Below, piece after piece: positions 3,735-12,588 of a DNA stretch of 64,000 nucleotides. The notes under the pieces were generated by a model. That model did not search any database and was not told the origin of the DNA. It saw only the letters and a list, made by a program, of their open reading frames with translations. The translations under genes and the position numbers were made by a program. The first letter of the stretch is position 1. Each line of letters opens with the position of its first letter. Source of the stretch: Candidatus Bathyarchaeota archaeon (GTDB lineage Archaea; Thermoproteota; Bathyarchaeia; Bathyarchaeales; Bathycorpusculaceae); assembly GCA_963775895.1 (NCBI GenBank), contig CAVZKL010000017.1:96001-160000 (forward strand). Direction: 5' to 3'.

Positions 3735-3991
3735 TTTTCTCTTCACCTTCACACAGATTTCAGTTAGACCAACGATTAATAAGCTTTCAGACCTCCAGAT
3801 TCACTTCAACTGAGATGGCTGTTGGCTGGCGCGCCTTTTCGACCCGTGAACGCCAAAGCCAGGTTATGTTGAATGGTCGGCGATTGCAGAGACCGGTTTT
3901 GCCTGTTGCTGGCCACCGAGTTGAACCGTCTTAAAGCTTTATTAACATTAAGAGAAAATAATAGACACTGTAAATCAGCAAACCATGTGAG

Positions 3992-4498
3992 ATGAGAAAA
4001 ATGTCAACAGGAAGCAGTTCACAGTTCGACATAAACCATTGGCTCTTACGCCTCGTTGCATTCATAATCGACAGCATAATAATCGGCATCGTAGCATGCA
4101 TCATATACTTCATCGTAACTCTGTCCATCATCTTGGGCGGCGGTTTGTGGTTCTTGTGGGGGCCATTCCTACTGCTTGGCTTTCTCTTAGGCGTACTTGA
4201 ACTCATTTACTTCATGTTTATGGAAGCTTCATATGGTGCAACGCTGGGGAAGAGAATCTTGGGATTACAGGTGCAAATGGTAAACGGTAGCAAAGTGACG
4301 TTTGAAAAAGCATTCATCCGTAACATAAGCAAGATACATGGGCTTTTCCTCCTACTGGACTGGATATTGGGAGTCGTTACCGCTGGGCACGACCAACGCC
4401 AGAAGTACTCTGATCGTATTGCAGGAACAACAGTTGTTCAACTGAAACAGCCTCTTGCAACAACTAGTCCACCTCCTCCACCGCCTCCACCGACATAG
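3992..4498 (+). CDS. RDD family membrane protein
   Basis: RLVAFIID...GATLGKRILGL...Q..SDRIAGT motifs, poly-Pro tail. Confidence 0.85.
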   Translation: MRKMSTGSSSQFDINHWLLRLVAFIIDSIIIGIVACIIYFIVTLSIILGGGLWFLWGPFLLLGFLLGVLELIYFMFMEASYGATLGKRILGLQVQMVNGSKVTFEKAFIRNISKIHGLFLLLDWILGVVTAGHDQRQKYSDRIAGTTVVQLKQPLATTSPPPPPPPPT

Positions 4499-4777: not shown

Positions 4778-6197
4778 ATGTCATCTGAAAACGTTCATCT
4801 CTTCAACACTCTTGCGCGATCCAAAGAAAGATTCATCGCAATAGAACACGGGCACGTGAAAATGTACACCTGCGGGCCCACAGTCTATGACTATAGTCAC
4901 ATAGGAAATATGCGGGCCTTCATTTTCGAGGATCTGCTCAAGAGATGGTTAGAATACAGAGGATTCAAGGTCACGCACGTAATGAACCTGACGGATGTTG
5001 ACGATCGAACTATTAAAGCCGCCAGAATCCAAGGCATCCCCATCAAACAACATGCGGAACGCTTCATACAAGTGTTCTTCGAAGATGTAACGACATTGGG
5101 AATTGAGAGAGCAGACATCTATCCGAAGGCAACAGACCACATTCCCGAAATGGTTGTACTCGTCAAGAAGCTTATCGATAAGGGATATGCATATCGAAGT
5201 GAGGATGGCTCAATATATTTCAGCATTTCAAAATTCAAAGACTACGGCAAACTCGCCAGAATCCAAGTCAGTGAACTCAAGGCTGGCGCCAGAGTGAAAG
5301 TCGACGATTATGAGAAGGAGGAAGCCTCTGACTTCGTACTGTGGAAAGCATGGGATCCGGAGGATGGCGATGTTTTCTGGAACACGGAAATCGGCAAAGG
5401 CAGACCGGGCTGGCATATAGAGTGTTCGGCAATGTCGATGAAGTATTTGGGAGAAACGTTTGATATTCACTGCGGCGGGGTGGACAACTTGTTTCCTCAT
5501 CATGAGAACGAGATCGCTCAGAGCGAGGCGGCTACTGGAAAGAAGTTCGTGAATTACTGGCTCCACAACGAGCATTTGCTGGTTGAGGGCAAGAAGATGG
5601 CGAAGAGGCTCGGTAACTATTTCACGGTGAGGGACCTAACCGCGAAAGGCTACGATCCTATCGCAATACGTTACCTTATGATATCTACGCACTATCGACA
5701 GCAGTTGAACTTCACTTTCGAAGGGTTAGATGCGGCTGGGAAAACGCTTGATCGTTTGAGAAATTTCATGAATCGCTTGATGGAAGCTGATGGAAAAGCA
5801 AGTGGCCATGCGCTCCAGCAGCTCGTAGAGACTGTGCGGACAGGCTTTGAAGAAGCGATGGACGACGACTTGAACATAAGTGTCGCTCTAGCCCATCTGT
5901 TTGACTTTGTTCGGGACGTGAACAACCTGTTGGACAAAGGTCTATTAGGCAGGGAAGAGGCAAAGGAAATTTGGTACGATGATGCTTAGGTTTGACAAGG
6001 TTCTGGGCGTGATCGGTGAAGTCGAGAAAGGCCAGGAGCTGTCTGACGAGGCGCAGCAGCTCATTCGCAAACGTGAAGAGGCGCGAAAGGCCAAGGACTG
6101 GAAAACCGCTGATCAGATACGAGAGCAGCTCAAGGCCATGGGCATCGTGATCGAGGATACGGCGCAAGGTGTCAAATGGAAAAAGGAAAACCGCTGA
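4778..6197 (+). CDS. cysS: cysteine--tRNA ligase, one apparent frameshift near 5980
   Basis: YTCGPTVY, HIGN, GRPGWHIECS, KMAK motifs; the anticodon-binding tail is in ORF 5979-6197. Confidence 0.95.
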
Positions 6198-6816: not shown

Positions 6817-7621
6817 TCACAGTTGACTTTTGCCCAGGCTGTTCCAATCGTCGGTGCCGTATTTCTCAAGGCAAAGTTTGTCTGAAACCTCTATCTCGAG
6901 ACTCGTCAGCTTTCCAGGTGCAAGTCGGATATCCAGCGCCCGGTTGAACCCTTCGATCAGCGCCTCGGTGACTTCCGCGACTGTTGTTCTTTCCGTAATT
7001 CCTCGTCTAGCGACGTGATTCTTGTTCTTGGCAACGTCAACGACTTGTCTTAATCGTAGTTGCCCAAGGGACGCGGAGAAAAGTGAACATTTTCGTCAAG
7101 TTGACCTTCAGGAGAAGTGTGCCGTGCTGCAGGACGACTCCTTTCTTGTGGGCTTGAGCGCTGCCAGAAATCTTCTTTCCATTAATGGTGAGGTTTGGGC
7201 AGGTCTTCTCGTTGCCTCGGTTGAAATCTGCTTTTACGCCCAGTGTCCGAACGGCTTCGACCAACCCCGAGTAAATCTTGTTGTAGACTTCGTTGATGTC
7301 CTCAGTTCCTAGATCGTCTTTCTCGGCGACTACGCTATAGGTGATTTCATCGACTGCGTCATGATAAACGGCTCCTCCGCCGGTTATTCTCCTAACAACG
7401 TCAACGCCATGCGCTTTGCAGTTCTCTAAGTGGACCTCTTTTTCAACTTCTTGAAATCTTCCAATTGACACGGCGGAAGGGTTCCATCGGTAGAATCTTA
7501 TCGTGTTTGGAGCAAGGCCTCTCATCCTCGCCTGCAGGATTGATTCGTCAATTGCCATGTTTTCGAAGGCGTTGCGAGTCTCGATTTCGAGCAAGCGCCA
7601 AGTTGTCAAAGTGTTAACCAC
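6817..7621 (-). CDS. lplA: lipoate-protein ligase A family, C-terminal frameshift
   Basis: NMAIDE, VRRITGGGAVYHD, KKISGSAQ, LQHGTLL; the C-terminus continues in another frame to EKYGTDDWN. Confidence 0.85.
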
Positions 7622-7654
7622 GGAAGGAAAATCAGATTGCTCTTAAGTATATTG

Positions 7655-7662
7655 CGATTCCT
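7655..7662 (+). repeat. left target-site duplication CGATTCCT
   Basis: Identical 8-mer immediately outside both terminal repeats. Confidence 0.9.
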
Positions 7663-7714
7663 GGTTCTGTCAAGTCTCCGTCGGAAAAGGGTTCATGTAA
7701 AAATTCGTCGGATA
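7663..7714 (+). repeat. left terminal inverted repeat
   Basis: GGTTCTGTCAAGTCTCCGTCGGAAAAGGGTTCATGTAAAAATTCGTCGGATA; 40/52 identical to the reverse complement of 10806-10857. Confidence 0.9.
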
Positions 7715-7738
7715 CAAGCCGTTTGAAGCCATTCATGA

Positions 7739-7975
7739 TCAATCTCTGAACTTATTAAGTTTAATGTAGATGTACGCCGCAAGTCCGAAACCAGCAATCA
7801 TTAGAGCCAAGCCGAAGAGAAATCCGAAAGTATCAAATGGAATCGCGTAGTAAACTGAGTCGTACATTATCTTGCGGTTAGCCAGCCAATCTTCATAGAA
7901 CATGAGCATAAACAGCAAGCCGACAACTATGAGAATGATGGCGAGCACAACTCGTTTTCTACCTTTCTCATTCAC
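7739..7975 (-). CDS. small 2-TM passenger protein
   Basis: 78 aa, two hydrophobic helices, 3-nt gap to the neighbouring ORF. Confidence 0.65.
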   Translation of the reverse strand: MNEKGRKRVVLAIILIVVGLLFMLMFYEDWLANRKIMYDSVYYAIPFDTFGFLFGLALMIAGFGLAAYIYIKLNKFRD

Positions 7976-7978
7976 TTA

Positions 7979-8224
7979 TTAACCCTCATCAAGTCCAAAC
8001 ATTCGTTTAACTGCTTTCCGAATGTCGGGTACACATACGAGAAAGAACATTATGATTAATGTTATGACTACTATAGCGGCTAAACTGTTGAAAAACTGAA
8101 TGAACCAATTAGTGCTACTGTAATACGCTTTCACAGCAAAATCGTACATTATCGCTGTGACAAATATCAGGAGGGCAATGAACAAAGAAACTTTGAACAA
8201 CGCTAGAAACTCAGCTTTCTTCAT
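7979..8224 (-). CDS. small 2-TM passenger protein
   Basis: 81 aa, two hydrophobic helices. Confidence 0.65.
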   Translation of the reverse strand: MKKAEFLALFKVSLFIALLIFVTAIMYDFAVKAYYSSTNWFIQFFNSLAAIVVITLIIMFFLVCVPDIRKAVKRMFGLDEG

Positions 8225-8414
8225 ATCACTCTTTTAGCACGTTATTGTGGCGACCCCTATCTAGTTTTCTGTATTTTTCTTCTGGCGACATGAGACTTGC
8301 CTTATCAAAGAAAACACACGAAGTACCAGAAGAGACAAGCTAGAAGAAAAGTAACAGGAACTCGTCATTAGGGCAGTAGAAAAATGGGGGATACAGGTAC
8401 GAATGTTCGAGGCA

Positions 8415-8669
8415 CTAGTACCTGTATCTTCTCTTTTTGGATTCTTTGTAGACCCAAAGAATTATCGCCGTAGCCACGAGAATATAGCCATCCGTAGTAA
8501 GCGATTGGTTTGCATTGAAACTTCGTATACCGATTCCTATGTACACAAGAGTCATGCCGAAGAACAGCAATAGCGCTAGGAAAGTCTTTGGGTTCTGCAG
8601 GTTTATACTCAGTCGTGTCATTCTCTTACTTCGTTCTATTCCTAGAAAATGACTCTTCCATTCATCCAC
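8415..8669 (-). CDS. small 2-TM passenger protein
   Basis: 84 aa, two hydrophobic helices, basic tail. Confidence 0.55.
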   Translation of the reverse strand: MDEWKSHFLGIERSKRMTRLSINLQNPKTFLALLLFFGMTLVYIGIGIRSFNANQSLTTDGYILVATAIILWVYKESKKRRYRY

Positions 8670-8806
8670 TCTAACTGCGCATAAGTTTAAATGCTAAGGT
8701 TAGCATTGTCCTTATTGGCATTAGTAGTTCAGAGTGGCGATGATATGAGCCATTCTCCAATTCTCATTCTGCTCTTTGACTATTTAAACACAGCAAAAAG
8801 TGGATT

Positions 8807-9954
8807 TTACAGGTCTTTTTGGGTCGCATTTTGAATTTTGGTCGAATTTTGAATCAGTGTTAACCATTTATTTTTTCCTTCTACCTTGATTCCGCAAGCT
8901 TCACTAGGCGTGTTACCTTCGAGTCCTTCATGAGCCCTAATGTAATTGTGAAAAATCTGATAACCTGTGAGAATCGGCGTATCATTCTTCTTGAGCCCAC
9001 GCATAGTTTTTTCTCTGTCTCTGATTTCACCATTCAACCTTTCCATTTTGTTGTTGTTTCTGTCTCCTCTAATCGTGATATGTCGTATGTGTTCGGTTCT
9101 TGGATAAGCTAAGGTTCGCCATTCTTTTTTGTACGCATCATGATATGTTGGTAAGCCGTCGGTTATCAGAGTCATGGGTTTCTTTCCCATCAATTGTCTC
9201 GCTCATCTTGAACAGTCTTCTTGCATCATGCTGGTGTTTGGTTTCTGCAACTTCCTGAGCAATCCAGAAACGAGTCTCATCATCCATCAAGGCGAAAAGA
9301 TATTTCAGGTCTCCCTTGATTTTCACGTATAATTCGTCTGCTCTCCAAGTGTCGCTTACGTTTGGAACAATTCTCTCGACGTAGTTTTTGCATCAGAGAG
9401 ACGTATTTGTTAATCCAATTATAGACGGTTTGGTGTGAGACTTCAACGCCTAGCAGTTTGAGAGATTTCATCGTGTTTCTTAATGATTCTCCGCTAAAAT
9501 AGAGTTGCATGGCAGAGGTGATGGCTTGAGGATTATGTTTCATCTTTTCAAAGCCTATGTTGAATGTGAAATAGTGCTTGCAGTCTTGGCAATAGAATTT
9601 CTGAATCTCACCACGCTTGTTCTTTCTTACTCCGTCTTTAACGATGTTTGATGAACCACAAAAGATGCATTCTGTCAAATTGTCTATGGGCTCGATTTTT
9701 CTGACTGATCTCTCTGAGTGAGACTGAAAACTCTACTGCAAAAATGTGCTTACACTTTACGTGACGATAAACGTGGTCTGGACATTCGCAGAACCATTCA
9801 TCTGAGACTTTGAAGACCTTGTATTTACCATGATTTGACTGAGATTTAACCGTGTAGGTGTTTGAGTCGATTCTTTTGATTTGGTTTGGTTGTTGTGCGA
9901 TTTCTTTTCCGCATTGTTCTCGCGTTCTTGGGATGTTGTCATTTCTATCGCCAT
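8807..9954 (-). CDS. IS6-like DDE transposase with N-terminal SWIM and Zn-ribbon domains; at least 3 frameshifts
   Basis: Joined fragments: CECPD..CKH (SWIM), CIFC..CQDC, SLRN..VSHQTVYNW (HTH), WRADE, ITDG, NNKMERLNG, HNYIRAH; start 9954 or 9973. Confidence 0.85.
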
Positions 9955-9984
9955 ATAACCGTATATACAGCATAGTATTTATGC

Positions 9985-10024
9985 TTTACGGTTTAACAGT
10001 AAACCTTAAATACGGTAAACAGTA
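9985..10024. promoter_or_regulatory. divergent promoter with palindrome and direct repeats (candidate operator)
   Basis: TTTACGGTTTA-acag-TAAACCTTAAA (10/11 inverted); TACGGTTTAACAGTA and TACGGTAAACAGTA direct repeats. Confidence 0.55.
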
Positions 10025-10045
10025 TCTAGAATGATAGGTGATCGA

Positions 10046-10201
10046 ATGCCAAAGAAATGGACTCTTCTAATAGATGACGAATTGGATGAGAGATTCAGAA
10101 AAGCCGTGTTTGAGACAAAAGGAATGCACAAGGGCAATTTGACCGAAGCAATGGAAGAGGCGATGAGATGCTGGATAGAGCAACAAAAGAAGAAAAAATG
10201 A
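10046..10201 (+). CDS. ribbon-helix-helix-like microprotein (51 aa)
   Basis: Own translation MPKKWTLLIDDELDERFRKAVFETKGMHKGNLTEAMEEAMRCWIEQQKKKK; AGGTGA SD-like site; ATGA overlap with the next gene. Confidence 0.75.
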   Translation: MPKKWTLLIDDELDERFRKAVFETKGMHKGNLTEAMEEAMRCWIEQQKKKK

Positions 10202-10611
10202 AAAAGCGTGAAAAAGAGGCGGAAGAGCTTCTTACGGAGATAGATAGTCTCCGTAAAGATATAATGACAGAATTGGAAAGGGAAAAGGCATCACGATGGG
10301 CTAGTTCAAAAGATAAGAGCCGTCTGAAACGTTTTCGAGAATTATACACAATAAGCTTGATGCTCCTTGACCAGCGCATAAGAGACGAACTTTTCCTTGG
10401 CAAGTTGAAAGTGCAAGTGGATAACTTAAACGAAATGTTGCAGAAAATTGCTGAAAAAGTTGATGTTGACCTCTCCAGCCTAAAAACTGAGGTCGAAACA
10501 TTGCATAAGACCATACAAGAGCCCATGTTCGCCGAAGTTGCTCAATTCGTAAAATTCGTGAAAAGTAATATCGAACAATCTAAAAAAGCAGGAGAACAAT
10601 ATGTCGAGTGA
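10198..10611 (+). CDS. coiled-coil hypothetical passenger protein
   Basis: ORF 10168-10611; start placed at the ATGA overlap. Confidence 0.7.
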   Translation: MKKREKEAEELLTEIDSLRKDIMTELEREKASRWASSKDKSRLKRFRELYTISLMLLDQRIRDELFLGKLKVQVDNLNEMLQKIAEKVDVDLSSLKTEVETLHKTIQEPMFAEVAQFVKFVKSNIEQSKKAGEQYVE

Positions 10612-10873
10612 CATGCTTGGAGAGATTATCAATACTCTCCAAGAGCTTAGGCGAATGCATCAGTTGAATTTTGAGCTTCTTGAAGAATTAAATGTAGCTT
10701 GTGCCTATCTTCTAGAAAACCATGCAAGCCTACCTAACCAAGAGAAGCTTGCGTCTCTTCTCTCGAAAGCTATGACACTTCTCAAAGAAATCAACACTGA
10801 ACCCCTATCCGACGAATTTTTACAGCGAAAGAAATCCGACAAAGACTTTACAGAACCCGATTCCTCATCTTGA
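10601..10873 (+). CDS. helical hypothetical protein whose 3' end overlaps the right inverted repeat
   Basis: 90 aa, overlaps the upstream gene, GGAGA SD-like site; stop codon lies outside the element. Confidence 0.65.
   Translation: MSSDMLGEIINTLQELRRMHQLNFELLEELNVACAYLLENHASLPNQEKLASLLSKAMTLLKEINTEPLSDEFLQRKKSDKDFTEPDSSS
10806..10857 (-). repeat. right terminal inverted repeat
   Basis: Reverse complement is GGTTCTGTAAAGTCTTTGTCGGATTTCTTTCGCTGTAAAAATTCGTCGGATA. Confidence 0.9.
10858..10865 (+). repeat. right target-site duplication CGATTCCT
   Basis: Identical to 7655-7662. Confidence 0.9.
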
Positions 10874-11030
10874 GCATTTTCAACACGGCAAAAGACAAGT
10901 TTTGAGGCGTGTCATCGGCGCTTATTTAGTAAGAAAATCTGAGGATCAAGGATTTTGATAGGCAGACAGGGCCACTTTAATAATCTTTCAGCGTTATGAC
11001 AAACGATAACGGCACGGGTGCGTAGAAAAC

Positions 11031-11423
11031 ATGCTAGCAGATTTCATTGTTGTCATGGATCGAGAACTGGTCAACATGATTCTTGAGGGTGCCAGAAGGC
11101 TTTACCCAAGGGAGTCCTTCCTGCTTCTCCGAGGAAAGAAAAGCAAGAACACGATCAAAATAACGGACCTGCTGGTTCCTCCACTCGCAAACTATGGCCG
11201 TGGTTTTGCTGAAGTCCAACTTCACAGGTTGCCGATGGATTTTTCAATCGTCGGAACAGTGCATTCTCACCCTTCTGGAAATCTTAATCCCTCAAGCATG
11301 GATCTTAACCATCTGATCGGACGCATTCTTATGATCATGGCATATCCATTTGCCGATGAGAGTAACATTGCCGTTTACAGTCGCAGCGGAGAAAAGGTGC
11401 AGCTTCAGGTAACTGAGACCTGA
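11031..11423 (+). CDS. JAMM/MPN+ (Mov34) metalloprotease
   Basis: YPRE...GTVHSHPSG..PS..D motif. Confidence 0.85.
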   Translation: MLADFIVVMDRELVNMILEGARRLYPRESFLLLRGKKSKNTIKITDLLVPPLANYGRGFAEVQLHRLPMDFSIVGTVHSHPSGNLNPSSMDLNHLIGRILMIMAYPFADESNIAVYSRSGEKVQLQVTET

Positions 11424-11476
11424 GAAGCAATTGTGGAAGATGCGGGCACAAACGTGATAATCATGGGGCTGAAGCT

Positions 11477-12588
11477 TTGCCGACAAGGGTCATAATGCTC
11501 GTTGACTTGGACTACTTCTACGCCCAGAGTGAGGAGCTCAGAAATCCTTCTCTGAAAAACAAGCCAGTCGTTGTTTGTGTCTTCTCAGGACGCACCGAAG
11601 AAAGCGGTGCTGTTAGCACCGCGAATTACATCGCACGTGGTTATGGAGTCAGGTCCGGTATGCCAATCTACTTGGCGAAGAAGAAGCTCGAGAGCGTCAA
11701 TGCCGCATTCCTGCCTGTTGACGAGAAACTTTACACGGAGACATCCGACAAAGTGATGCAGGTGCTGAGAGTCTACGCTGATGAATTTGAGCAAGTGGGT
11801 ATTGATGAGGCCTATCTTGACGTCACGAAACGGGTGCAAGCGGAGTTTTCAAAACGCCAAAAATCTCGCTAACACGATAAAGAGTGAGCTGCGCAATCAA
11901 CTAGGGCTGACTTGTTCCATCGGGGTGGGGCCGAACAAACTTGTCGCAAAGATCGCAGCAGACGAAAAGAAGCCTGACGGATTGACAATCGTGGAACCGG
12001 ATAGAGTCAAGAGGGTTCTTAGAACCTCTTCCTGCAAATCGTCTTCTCGGCGTGGGCGTGAAAACTGCGAAAAAAATGGCGGCTATGAACATCTGTACGA
12101 TTGGCGATCTTGCAAAGTATGATGTTCAGAGACTGATTTCCACGTTTGGCAGGACTCTCGGGACGTACTTTCACAACGCCTCCATTGGAGTTGACAATGA
12201 GCCTGTAAAAGAGAGAGGTGAGGCAGGGTCACTGAGTAGAATTGCCACTCTCATGCAAAACACCAGCGACTCGAGCGTTGTCCTTGAGAAGGCCAACGAA
12301 CTCTGTGTCGACCTGTATGCAAGTATCGCTGAGCAGAAACTGACGTTCAAATCGGTCAGCATAATCTTGATTGCCAAAGACCTGAGTGTCTACAGTCGAT
12401 CCAGAACACTTGAGAGCTCATCGAACAGCTTGGAAATGATGGAGAAAGTTGCCGGAGAGCTTTTTGAAGCGTTCCTGAGCGAAAACCCCATTGAACTTCG
12501 AAGGGTCGGGGTGAAGCTTTCAGGTCTTTCGGGCATTGGAAAGGGTCAGAAGCAGATTACTGGCTTTTTCGGTTCTCCACAAGACTAG
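11477..12588 (+). CDS. dinB: DNA polymerase IV (Dpo4/DinB), two frameshifts
   Basis: DLDYFYAQ, STANY.AR.YGV.SGM, GIDEAYLD, NKLVAKIA, RRVGV; C-terminal QKQITGFF PIP box. Confidence 0.9.

Follow-up and report, generated by a model that had tools for sequence, protein, structure and literature searches.

A passenger-carrying transposon with an IS6-like transposase in a Bathyarchaeota genome and its relatives among archaea

Most insertion sequences (ISs) of the IS6 family measure 700–890 bp, seven members 1,230–1,460 bp and three 1,710–1,760 bp. They end in short related inverted repeats of 14–20 bp, produce 8-bp repeats and encode only a transposase of 213–254 aa, and the only passenger-bearing member named is ISDsp3, with one gene; clades h and i carry a zinc finger and further N-terminal additions (PMC7986276). 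The bacterial IS6 end consensus reads GGTTCTGTTGCAAA. Harmer and Hall (2019) treated the archaeal and the long clostridial groups as not part of IS6/IS26 proper, and archaeal ISfinder IS6 entries in part of their Table 5 measure 671–778 bp with transposases of 206–231 aa (PMC6807381). ISs of thaumarchaea consist of one or two genes (Krupovic et al. 2019, PMC6563490). The element described here occupies positions 7663–10857 (3,195 bp) of a 64,000-nucleotide stretch of DNA, hereafter the window, from a Candidatus Bathyarchaeota archaeon (GenBank assembly GCA_963775895.1, contig CAVZKL010000017.1, positions 96,001 to 160,000 of the forward strand). It is very probably a single transposon of an IS6-related archaeal family, inserted between divergent lplA-like and JAB/JAMM genes with duplication of 8 bp of target.

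The borders of the element are sharply defined. Both 52-nt ends start with GGTTCTGT, and the identical 8-mer CGATTCCT stands directly outside each of them (Table 1). An earlier note on this DNA had proposed 52-bp inverted repeats at these positions, a perfect 8-bp duplication, a length of 3,195 bp and a location between lplA and JAMM. These proposals hold, with the correction that the repeats are imperfect: 7663–7714 and 10806–10857 match at 40 of 52 positions, in outer blocks of 8, 6 and 6, followed by 10 nt with few matches and an inner block of 19 nt without mismatch, which is all that a repeat search of the window listed. A scan of the 64-kb window for inverted 52-nt pairs lying 1–6.5 kb apart with at least 38/52 matches returned six matches, all of them the element ends or 1–3-base shifts of these. 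On a binomial model, 5e-5 such pairs are expected per window, or 8e-10 with an 8/8 flank match added. Internal ends were not detectable within the element, and the contig's only GGTTCTG ends with an inner site are the two termini. With one transposase and a single pair of IS6-type ends as its borders, the element is thus one transposon and not a composite of two IS copies, in agreement with the note, which had described a transporter IS (tIS) with a single end pair. A tIS is defined by a single transposase, one inverted end pair, a duplication enclosing the entire unit and internal genes that have nothing to do with transposition, and all are found here.

Profile searches identify the host neighbours as an LplA/B catalytic-domain gene (E 6.5e-46), which starts at 7621 on the minus strand, and, from 11031 on the plus strand, a Prok-JAB gene (E 1.5e-8), in agreement with an insertion site between divergent lplA-like and JAB/JAMM genes. 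The insertion point lies 33–41 nt upstream of the lplA start codon (7622–7662), just past an AT-rich, TATA-like stretch at 7643–7653, so the lplA core promoter may have been spared. By blastn and tblastn the element is present once in its own genome of 1.77 Mb and 28 contigs.

The empty form of the site is found in public data. Logan contigs of four public runs (X1, X2, X6 and X7) were compared with positions 7000–11500, and 41 related genomes were searched; stretches without contig cover do not count as absence, and run shares of 0.06–0.12 are uninformative on habitat. Contigs of X2 (3,112 bp, depth 31.9), X6 (2,929 bp) and X7 (1,657 bp), from three studies, join position 7654 to 10858. The joint skips 3,203 bp (3,195 + 8) with 8 shared letters, that is, one CGATTCCT and no element. 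The earlier note had predicted an empty allele with a single copy of this 8-mer and had named element-free relatives lacking it at the junction as the observation that would speak against an insertion; the contigs of three of the four runs carry exactly one copy at the joint. Their flanks differ from the window at 49/634 positions on the left and 14/643 on the right, so they represent close relatives, not the same strain. The occupied allele appears in X1, where a 170-bp contig spans the left junction with 2 differences and a 300-bp internal piece is identical; X1 may be the source sample of the assembly.

Among the 41 relatives, the closest that keep lplA beside JAMM are G006 (contig C21) and G005 (contig C7). 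Both are element-free, with gaps of 223 and 268 bp, and the left alignment to them stops at window position 7662, where the homologous 8-mer-like site reads TGATTTCT and CGATATTCT, once each. The lplA|JAMM adjacency, judged from these genomes, is apparently specific to the window's closer relatives. Between the two genes lie 2.0–2.5 kb in G001, G002, G008 and G010. The gap in G001 was considered as another insertion and rejected, since it holds an ABC-transporter ATPase and permease pair instead of a mobile element (L006:1–1403 = G001:C1:176163–177565).

The transposase is most easily read through an intact 370-aa homologue from the same-genus genome G008 (L012:6186–7298, minus strand). In the window its gene is divided into four overlapping frame segments (9638–9973, 9280–9678, 9138–9326 and 8807–9193), and tblastn of the intact homologue returns four colinear pieces of 67–79% identity with three shifts between them, all +1. 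Near residue 52 the homologue carries a SWIM-type motif, CxC...CxH; this is followed by a zinc-binding region of IS1/IS1595 type (residues 93–127; E 5e-5; 23.8 bits, below the cutoff of 28), a helix-turn-helix (HTH) region, and DDE_Tnp_IS240 at 198–336 (60.2 bits, cutoff 27). The window's C-terminal fragment reaches 28.5 bits against Pfam DDE_Tnp_IS240 (cutoff 27), and a window fragment scores 18.3 bits against Pfam SWIM, just below the cutoff of 19.6. Of nine NCBIfam families hit by the intact homologue, transpos_IS6 is the best (E 6e-34, 117.5 bits against a curated cutoff of 125); transpos_IS1 gives 55.8 bits, below both its cutoff of 100 and the IS6 score, and an IS1595-family transposase model is not among these hits. 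In an alignment with IS6100, Listeria IS6, ISCpe7, Cetobacterium IS6 and Halorussus IS6, residues D203, D262 and E301 are invariant and R308 follows seven residues after E; the D, D and E motifs are also present in the window's fragments.

Among the 25 best plasmid matches, all annotated features are IS6-family transposases; nearest to the query are those of long IS6 elements from clostridia (ISCpe7 family; 27–32% identity, E 1e-19 to 2e-25). The Halorussus IS6 transposase shows 28% identity over 58% of the query, IS6100 27.7% over residues 154–331, and a PDB sequence search with the intact transposase gave no match. In a tree of 19 family transposases and six IS6 references, the former group together in a single clade (support 97/98, stem 3.49) within which host phyla are interleaved; the 19 were hand-chosen for host spread from 79 loci, the references are six only, and the tree drew long-branch warnings. 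The transposase belongs to a distinct clade that is IS6-like by hidden Markov model. A second IS6-like transposase gene of the same genome, at C13:41855–42739, is 33% identical over residues 56–369 and forms an uninterrupted single frame.

With IS6/IS26 proper (IS26, IS257/IS431, IS1216, IS6100) the element shares an HTH + DDE transposase, a K/R seven residues after E and an 8-bp duplication. Its tips, GGTTCTGTCAAGTC and GGTTCTGTAAAGTC, match the bacterial consensus (PMC6807381), and both ends show the IS6 tip features (GG, G at position 7, cTGTt motif) as given in PMC6807381 and PMC7986276. It differs in its 3,195 bp, its 52-nt two-site ends, a ~370-aa transposase with SWIM and zinc finger, and seven further open reading frames (ORFs). 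The note had remarked that IS6 members are usually under about 1 kb; none of those consulted in PMC7986276 and PMC6807381 comes near the present element, which is four times the size of the small IS6 ISs. The hallmark of IS6/IS26 proper is cointegrate formation; what was observed of the present family are end products.

The long clostridial ISCpe7 group (clades h/i of Varani et al.; VII/VIII of Harmer and Hall) likewise has an N-terminal zinc finger before HTH and DDE, and clade i adds a further N-terminal domain, where the present enzyme has SWIM. Unlike the present family, that group is bacterial, 1.2–1.8 kb long and passenger-free, has a double zinc finger and no SWIM, and forms a separate clade in the tree; only one of its members starts with GG (PMC6807381). 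The archaeal ISfinder IS6 elements (ISH14, ISH29, ISC774 and others) resemble it in archaeal hosts, many GG tips and 8-bp duplications, and differ, in the Table 5 rows compared, in being 671–778 bp long with transposases of 206–231 aa and inverted repeats of 13–22 bp (PMC6807381); the Halorussus IS6 transposase falls outside the family clade. Like other tISs, the element holds IS-type ends, a transposase and passengers within one end pair, unlike ISDsp3 in that the latter is ~1.5 kb with one passenger (PMC7986276).

Two further families call for comparison. Passenger-bearing groups are known in IS1595, e.g. ISNha5, and the ISMhu11 group of IS1 is archaeal, passenger-bearing and up to ~4.6 kb long, with GGnnnTG ends. 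IS1/ISMhu11 elements are marked by such ends, an 8–9 bp duplication and an N-terminal zinc finger; the GGTTCTG ends and 8-bp duplication seen here agree with this, and the zinc model stays below cutoff (23.8 vs 28). The element differs from IS1 in that transpos_IS1 is below cutoff, that intact homologues are single ORFs rather than two joined by a −1 frameshift, and that the shifts in the window are +1. The comparison with the ISMhu11 group is by general description only, and overlap with the present family is possible.

Far from being a singular oddity, the element belongs to a large archaeal family with members in Bathyarchaeia, Nitrososphaerota, Methanoperedens and Methanocellaceae. A word-indexed protein search gave 5,389 proteins with E ≤1e-3 among 6,722 candidates, the best 120 being 366–387 aa long and 71–100% identical to the query; an exhaustive search of 1.84 billion cluster representatives returned 6,013, 2,324 and 454 proteins at E 1e-3, 1e-10 and 1e-30. 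Of 184 candidate stretches from species-representative genomes, 151 were found to code for a relative, and 79 distinct loci were kept. By record title their hosts are mostly Bathyarchaeia/Bathyarchaeota, with many Nitrososphaerota (Nitrosopumilus, Nitrosotalea, Nitrosotenuis, Nitrososphaeraceae) and, more rarely, two Methanoperedens, one Methanocellaceae and one Sifarchaeum; two bins labelled bacterial may be mis-binned.

A GGTTCTG end pair (at least 19/25 alike) surrounds the transposase in 32 of the 79 loci. A perfect 8/8 duplication flanks 26 of these 32, against 0/31 for control 8-mers taken 12 nt further out, and in L047 and L067 the duplications are apparently offset by one base. Validated siblings are 1,983–6,051 bp long (median 3,633), and none is a bare transposase gene. 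The GGTTCTG tip occurs in 61 of the 66 sibling ends listed (63/64 without the mis-paired L025), and the listed siblings share one end layout: an outer site GGTTCTG-TTAACTTnnCGnnnGAT, a spacer of ~9 nt and an inner site TGTTAACTnTCGnnnGAT. The variable core of these sites differs between elements, and all four sites of an element have it in common. Outer and inner sites compared as ungapped 18-mers gave no separation (10.3 matches of 18 within the same element vs 9.0 between different ones); because the sites differ by small indels, a 7-mer core test was used instead. With at least 6/7 matches, the outer-site 7-mer is found again in the inner part of its own end in 49/64 cases and of the opposite end in 45/64, compared with 610/3,968 between different elements. 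Each end thus has two predicted transposase-binding sites, and ends and transposases appear to have co-varied across the family.

Siblings combine related cores with different cargo, as the maps of 33 elements and tblastn of the window's ORFs against the loci indicate. In the sibling on contig C5 of G005, the transposase DNA is 81% identical and the right end 94% identical to those of the window, and an unrelated module lies between them, which bears out the note's expectation of siblings with the same ends and different cargo. A contig of run X2 has the same breakpoints, 9922 and 10805. Defence genes are frequent in sibling cargo, for which Pfam assignments include GmrSD (L039), GmrSD_N + HNH (L085), N6_Mtase restriction-modification fusions (L060, L101), methylase + Mrr (L088, L017), ParB (L061), PemK/MazF (L064) and a proteasome-type subunit (L065); two of the ten cargo proteins tested had no family. 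The place upstream of the transposase is usually taken by a small gene of RHH or AbrB type; a MazE/AbrB-type protein replaces the ribbon-helix-helix (RHH) protein in some siblings (3/10 Pfam-tested). An unusual passenger, a proteasome-subunit-like gene beside a MazE/AbrB-type gene, was seen in L027:3847–4714, L064:1353–2102 and L065:2783–3619 (Pfam Proteasome E 4.7e-14, L065 only).

Whether the present copy can move is less clear than its borders. The note had called the element complete; this is not borne out, since the transposase frame is broken three times in the assembly. Host genes nearby show breaks of the same kind. Compared with intact orthologues in G006 and G005, +1 shifts occur in a 474-aa gene (~5964–5971), in lplA (~7050) and in a DinB-type polymerase gene (~11846, ~12015). 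Further host-gene +1 shifts lie at window position ~1440 and, outside the window, on contig C17 near 84.3 kb and 89.9 kb. A survey with 36 ORFs of G005 (10,655 aligned residues) returned six shifts, plus the lplA shift missed by its filter; the seven host shifts all fall within 84–108 kb of C17, and none was found in 16 ORFs at 111–132 kb. The three transposase shifts and the seven host-gene shifts are all +1, i.e. one extra base, and at 7050 (lplA), 9196 and 9709 related metagenome contigs are shorter by exactly one letter. This one-directional pattern argues for an assembly or polishing artefact. The host-gene breaks at 84–108 kb look like a local assembly or polishing error, and for the transposase assembly error is as likely an explanation as decay; the autonomy of the present copy depends on whether its three breaks are real. 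Programmed frameshifting was considered and rejected as improbable: intact homologues are single ORFs, host genes share the +1 breaks, and the runs at two sites are of only five bases.

That the three breaks are real mutations, and the element a dead, non-autonomous relic mobile only with transposase supplied in trans, falls just short of an even chance. Three shifts in the 1.1 kb of the transposase stand beside seven in ~18.5 kb of host coding DNA, even in the noisiest neighbourhood (Poisson p ~0.01); the 81%-identical G005 sibling is also broken, into at least four ORFs, though the host genes of G005 are mostly whole; and the genome's only other family-like gene (C13:41855–42739), at 33% identity, leaves no close source of transposase in trans. 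Random decay, however, should mix insertions and deletions, whereas all ten shifts are of one extra base, and related contigs are one letter shorter at the three positions named. Moreover, the segments are stop-free and retain 67–79% identity to the intact protein, and the transposase region draws very many related metagenome reads (word depth up to 1,758 in X2), which can spoil a consensus.

Family elements are found end to end. Facing ends (CAGAACC, N nt, GGTTCTG) in 938 kb of loci have N = 8 thirteen times and N = 11 once; spacers of 0–7, 9, 10 and 12–20 nt were not found there. Abutting elements often have different end sequences, and within L069, L070, L026 and L087 one and the same 8-mer is repeated at all junctions and again at the outer borders of the array. 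In the whole genomes of the 41 relatives, searched with N = 4–12, five of ten distinct matches have N = 8, and a reversed control pattern matched three times. CTTTATCA is the 8-mer at four of those five junctions, across three same-genus genomes, and at the junctions in G002 and G008 that carry it different elements abut; its recurrence suggests a shared hot spot or an old array. A contig of run X2 has a right end like that of the window, then 8 nt, then a left end. The simplest reading of these arrays would be repeated insertion into the 8 bp beside a resident end, re-duplicating the 8-mer each time. This resembles IS30-type inverted-repeat targeting, with members one duplication length (8 nt) apart and the same 8-mer along the array; compared with that system, the present pattern is known from sequence alone, and abutting elements often differ in their ends. 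It is unlike the targeted conservative insertion of IS26, which makes no duplication (PMC6807381).

Stacking also bears on how the 3.2-kb unit arose. It is possible, although on balance unlikely, that the unit is secondary: two or more stacked family elements would have lost their inner ends and fused their modules, and the cargo would have been acquired in this way and not gene by gene. The 13 junctions with exact 8-nt spacers and the arrays that repeat one 8-mer (L069, L070, L026, L087) are consistent with such an origin, as is the loss of homology between siblings, which share transposase and ends, at two points: exactly where the right repeat stops on its inner side (10805/10806), and close to the start of the transposase (9922). 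A remnant of an internal end is, however, not detectable in the window's element. A secondary origin concerns the past of the unit and is compatible with its being a single transposon now.

A pseudo-compound (IS26-style) or composite structure, or a plasmid or virus fragment caught between IS ends by happenstance, is highly improbable. The classical way for IS6 members to carry passengers is between two copies in direct repeat (PMC7986276), and RHH and coiled-coil genes are common on plasmids and viruses. Here, however, there is one transposase gene and one end pair, inverted and not direct; the unit as a whole is flanked by the duplication, and the empty site is shorter by exactly 3,195 + 8 bp. 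Replication, capsid and integrase genes were not found in the element by Pfam, NCBIfam and PHROGs profile searches. That the repeats and flanking 8-mers arose by chance, or that the insertion is an assembly chimera, can be practically dismissed: the occupied allele is backed only by the assembly and short X1 contigs, perhaps from the same sample, but the expectation is ~8e-10, the exact empty site occurs in three of four runs, and 26 siblings elsewhere have the same architecture.

Several observations nonetheless weigh against a single transposon of an IS6-related family. The two ends are 77% alike. The element is single-copy, and a second identical insertion was not seen, so recent activity of the present copy is not demonstrated; if the breaks in its four-frame transposase are real, it cannot move by itself. 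The transpos_IS6 score stays below its curated cutoff, and the long stem apart from all six IS6 references makes membership of the IS6 family arguable. No end pair was recognised under the criteria used in 47 of the 79 loci, and the binding sites, the role of the regulator and the transposition pathway are inferred.

The genes of the element are arranged on two divergent strands, with the transposase and ORFs of 78, 81 and 84 aa on the minus strand and the RHH-like, 147-aa and 90-aa ORFs on the plus strand (Table 1). The note had listed one transposase and six other ORFs in this divergent layout. The layout stands, while the transposase is in fact four overlapping frame segments and a seventh small ORF on the plus strand (8297–8371) had been overlooked. 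Of the six, which the note had taken for an internal regulator and cargo, the three small minus-strand ORFs remain passengers, and the RHH-like, 147-aa and 90-aa ORFs are better read as probable family accessory genes, since they recur at the same position in siblings. PHROGs searches with the six ORFs and the transposase gave weak matches only.

Table 1. Coordinates of the element, its genes and end-to-end junctions of family members (window positions unless a locus or genome is named)
Feature	Position	Strand	Remarks
Left copy of 8-bp target-site duplication CGATTCCT	7655..7662	.	same 8-mer on both flanks; single copy in element-free contigs
Inverted repeat downstream of transposase; outer site GGTTCTGTCAAGTCTCCGTCGGA, inner site TGTAAAAATTCGTCGGATA	7663..7714	+	40/52 vs other end; two-site layout in sibling ends
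Passenger ORF, 78 aa, two hydrophobic segments (Kyte-Doolittle)	7739..7975	-	ORF list
Passenger ORF, 81 aa, two hydrophobic segments	7979..8224	-	ORF list; rare
Micro-ORF, 24 codons, TTG start, very basic peptide	8297..8371	+	conserved in four same-genus loci; tblastn matches in 7 loci
Passenger ORF, 84 aa, hydrophobic, one segment	8415..8669	-	ORF list
IS6-like DDE transposase gene (SWIM, zinc finger, HTH, DDE)	8807..9973	-	four frame segments; colinear with intact 370-aa homologue over residues 7–369
Divergent control region, transposase/RHH	9974..10045	.	19-nt imperfect palindrome 9975–9993 / 9995–10013, 84% complementary; GGTGAT before ATG at 10046
Small ribbon-helix-helix-like protein	10046..10201	+	51 aa from ATG 10046, 56 aa from 10031; Pfam RHH_6
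Coiled-coil-like accessory protein (putative), 147 aa	10168..10611	+	23% identity (E 8e-7) to positional counterpart in G008 sibling; tblastn matches in 2 loci
Accessory protein (putative), 90 aa	10601..10873	+	frame crosses right repeat and duplication, stops 8 nt beyond in host DNA
Inverted repeat upstream of transposase; outer and inner site	10806..10857	-	94% identical to G005:C5 sibling end
Right copy of 8-bp target-site duplication CGATTCCT	10858..10865	.	identical to left flank
8-nt junctions	L069:146-167, 4028-4049; L070:910-931, 3877-3898; L026:7395-7416; L087:1619-1640, 4080-4101
8-nt junctions, same-genus genomes	G008:C1:88298, 92453; G002:C1:265748; G001:C1:1715689

The RHH-like protein matches Pfam RHH_6 at E 0.0014 (19.6 bits, under the cutoff of 27), and its homologues stand directly upstream of, and divergent from, the transposase in eight other family loci (tblastn); it is likely a regulator. 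The palindrome in the control region it shares with the transposase is a candidate operator; the DNA fold of this region is unremarkable (z-score −1.75). For the 147-aa protein no family could be assigned with Pfam, NCBIfam and PHROGs profiles or the Protein Atlas, where the best scores of the 147-aa and 90-aa proteins were 0.82 and 0.85, under the meaningful level. Homologues of the 90-aa protein occupy the same terminal position in 14 distinct loci (tblastn; 15 rows, two being the same locus). Only 11 relatives were found in a large protein collection, and their spread of lengths, 90–141 aa, fits read-out into different flanks. Many siblings have ORFs that read out through the same end; these belong to different protein families, some with zinc-ribbon motifs.

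The true passengers are probably the small orphan membrane proteins of 78 and 81 aa. The 78-aa ORF had no relatives by tblastn in the sibling loci or the rest of the genome, and no family in Pfam or PHROGs. The 81-aa ORF had none in the sibling loci by tblastn, two relatives in the large protein collection (98% and 54% identity) and a weak PHROG match (E 1.7e-4). For the 84-aa ORF, one distant relative (34% identity over 58 aa) was found, in L015, a locus that holds a sibling.

The micro-ORF is a different case. Its relatives lie at L015:4720–4791, L021:5892–5963, L020:4224–4295 (minus strand) and L014:6417–6482 (minus strand), preceded by GGTGAT, and the changes in the four same-genus loci preserve the peptide (AGA to CGT, both Arg; stop TAG to TAA). 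A known RNA was considered for the conserved ~90-nt module at 8253–8371 and rejected: Rfam (E up to 1) gave no match on 7500–11000, so the module is not a known RNA, and the substitution pattern fits the 24-codon ORF. The micro-ORF is often located ~80–250 bp inside the transposase-downstream end, and also occurs at many other places in same-genus genomes.

A mechanism can be proposed from these features. The ~370-aa transposase would use its zinc-finger and HTH region to bind element-specific ~19-bp sites, two at each end and four in all, synapse the ends and join them to target DNA cut with an 8-bp stagger. The RHH protein, divergently transcribed from the shared ~70-bp control region, would repress or tune expression; the 147-aa and 90-aa proteins may act as family accessory factors, and the three small membrane ORFs and the micro-ORF would travel as passengers. 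The pathway could be either an IS26-like cointegrate followed by resolution, or direct simple insertion. Simple insertions with duplications predominate among the end products of the family, and that they are frequent is suggested by the high proportion of siblings with intact duplications and by insertion exactly beside resident ends.

An IS with passengers is a known concept. The combination seen here (an IS6-like SWIM transposase, two-site ends of ~50 nt, a built-in regulator, defence cargo and end-to-end stacking) was not found in the literature searched; full-text literature searches, with ISfinder entries outside their coverage, returned no description of the family. The suggestion of an undescribed archaeal transposon class is therefore kept only in part: a distinct clade or variant of IS6-like DDE elements stands, and 'class' is too strong for something to which the tIS concept already applies. 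The broader proposal, evenly balanced in our judgement between right and wrong, is an undescribed IS6-related archaeal family with a SWIM + zinc-finger DDE transposase, two-site ends of ~50 nt, an RHH/AbrB-type regulator and interchangeable, defence-rich cargo, which moves between Bathyarchaeia, ammonia-oxidising Nitrososphaerota and methane-cycling Methanoperedens/Methanocellaceae and prefers the tips of resident copies.

IS6 is the textbook minimal IS, moving passengers only as pairs through cointegrates; here an IS6-like enzyme is associated with self-contained transposons of 2–6 kb. For annotation, the labels 'DDE-type integrase/transposase/recombinase' (one NCBI record) or 'transposase-like protein' (JGI records) mark mobile units with exact borders. 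The family offers a natural series of ends and transposases, useful for the study of end recognition, and a testable case of insertion at resident ends. If the proposal is true, tip insertion would build arrays that re-duplicate a single 8-bp target and provide a substrate for cargo shuffling. The family is common in uncultured archaea of soil, wetland and sediment, where siblings carry restriction-modification, GmrSD, toxin-antitoxin and other cargo; it would thus give Bathyarchaeia, Nitrososphaerota and relatives of methanogens, lineages in which mobile elements are poorly known, a concrete means of exchanging defence genes with one another.

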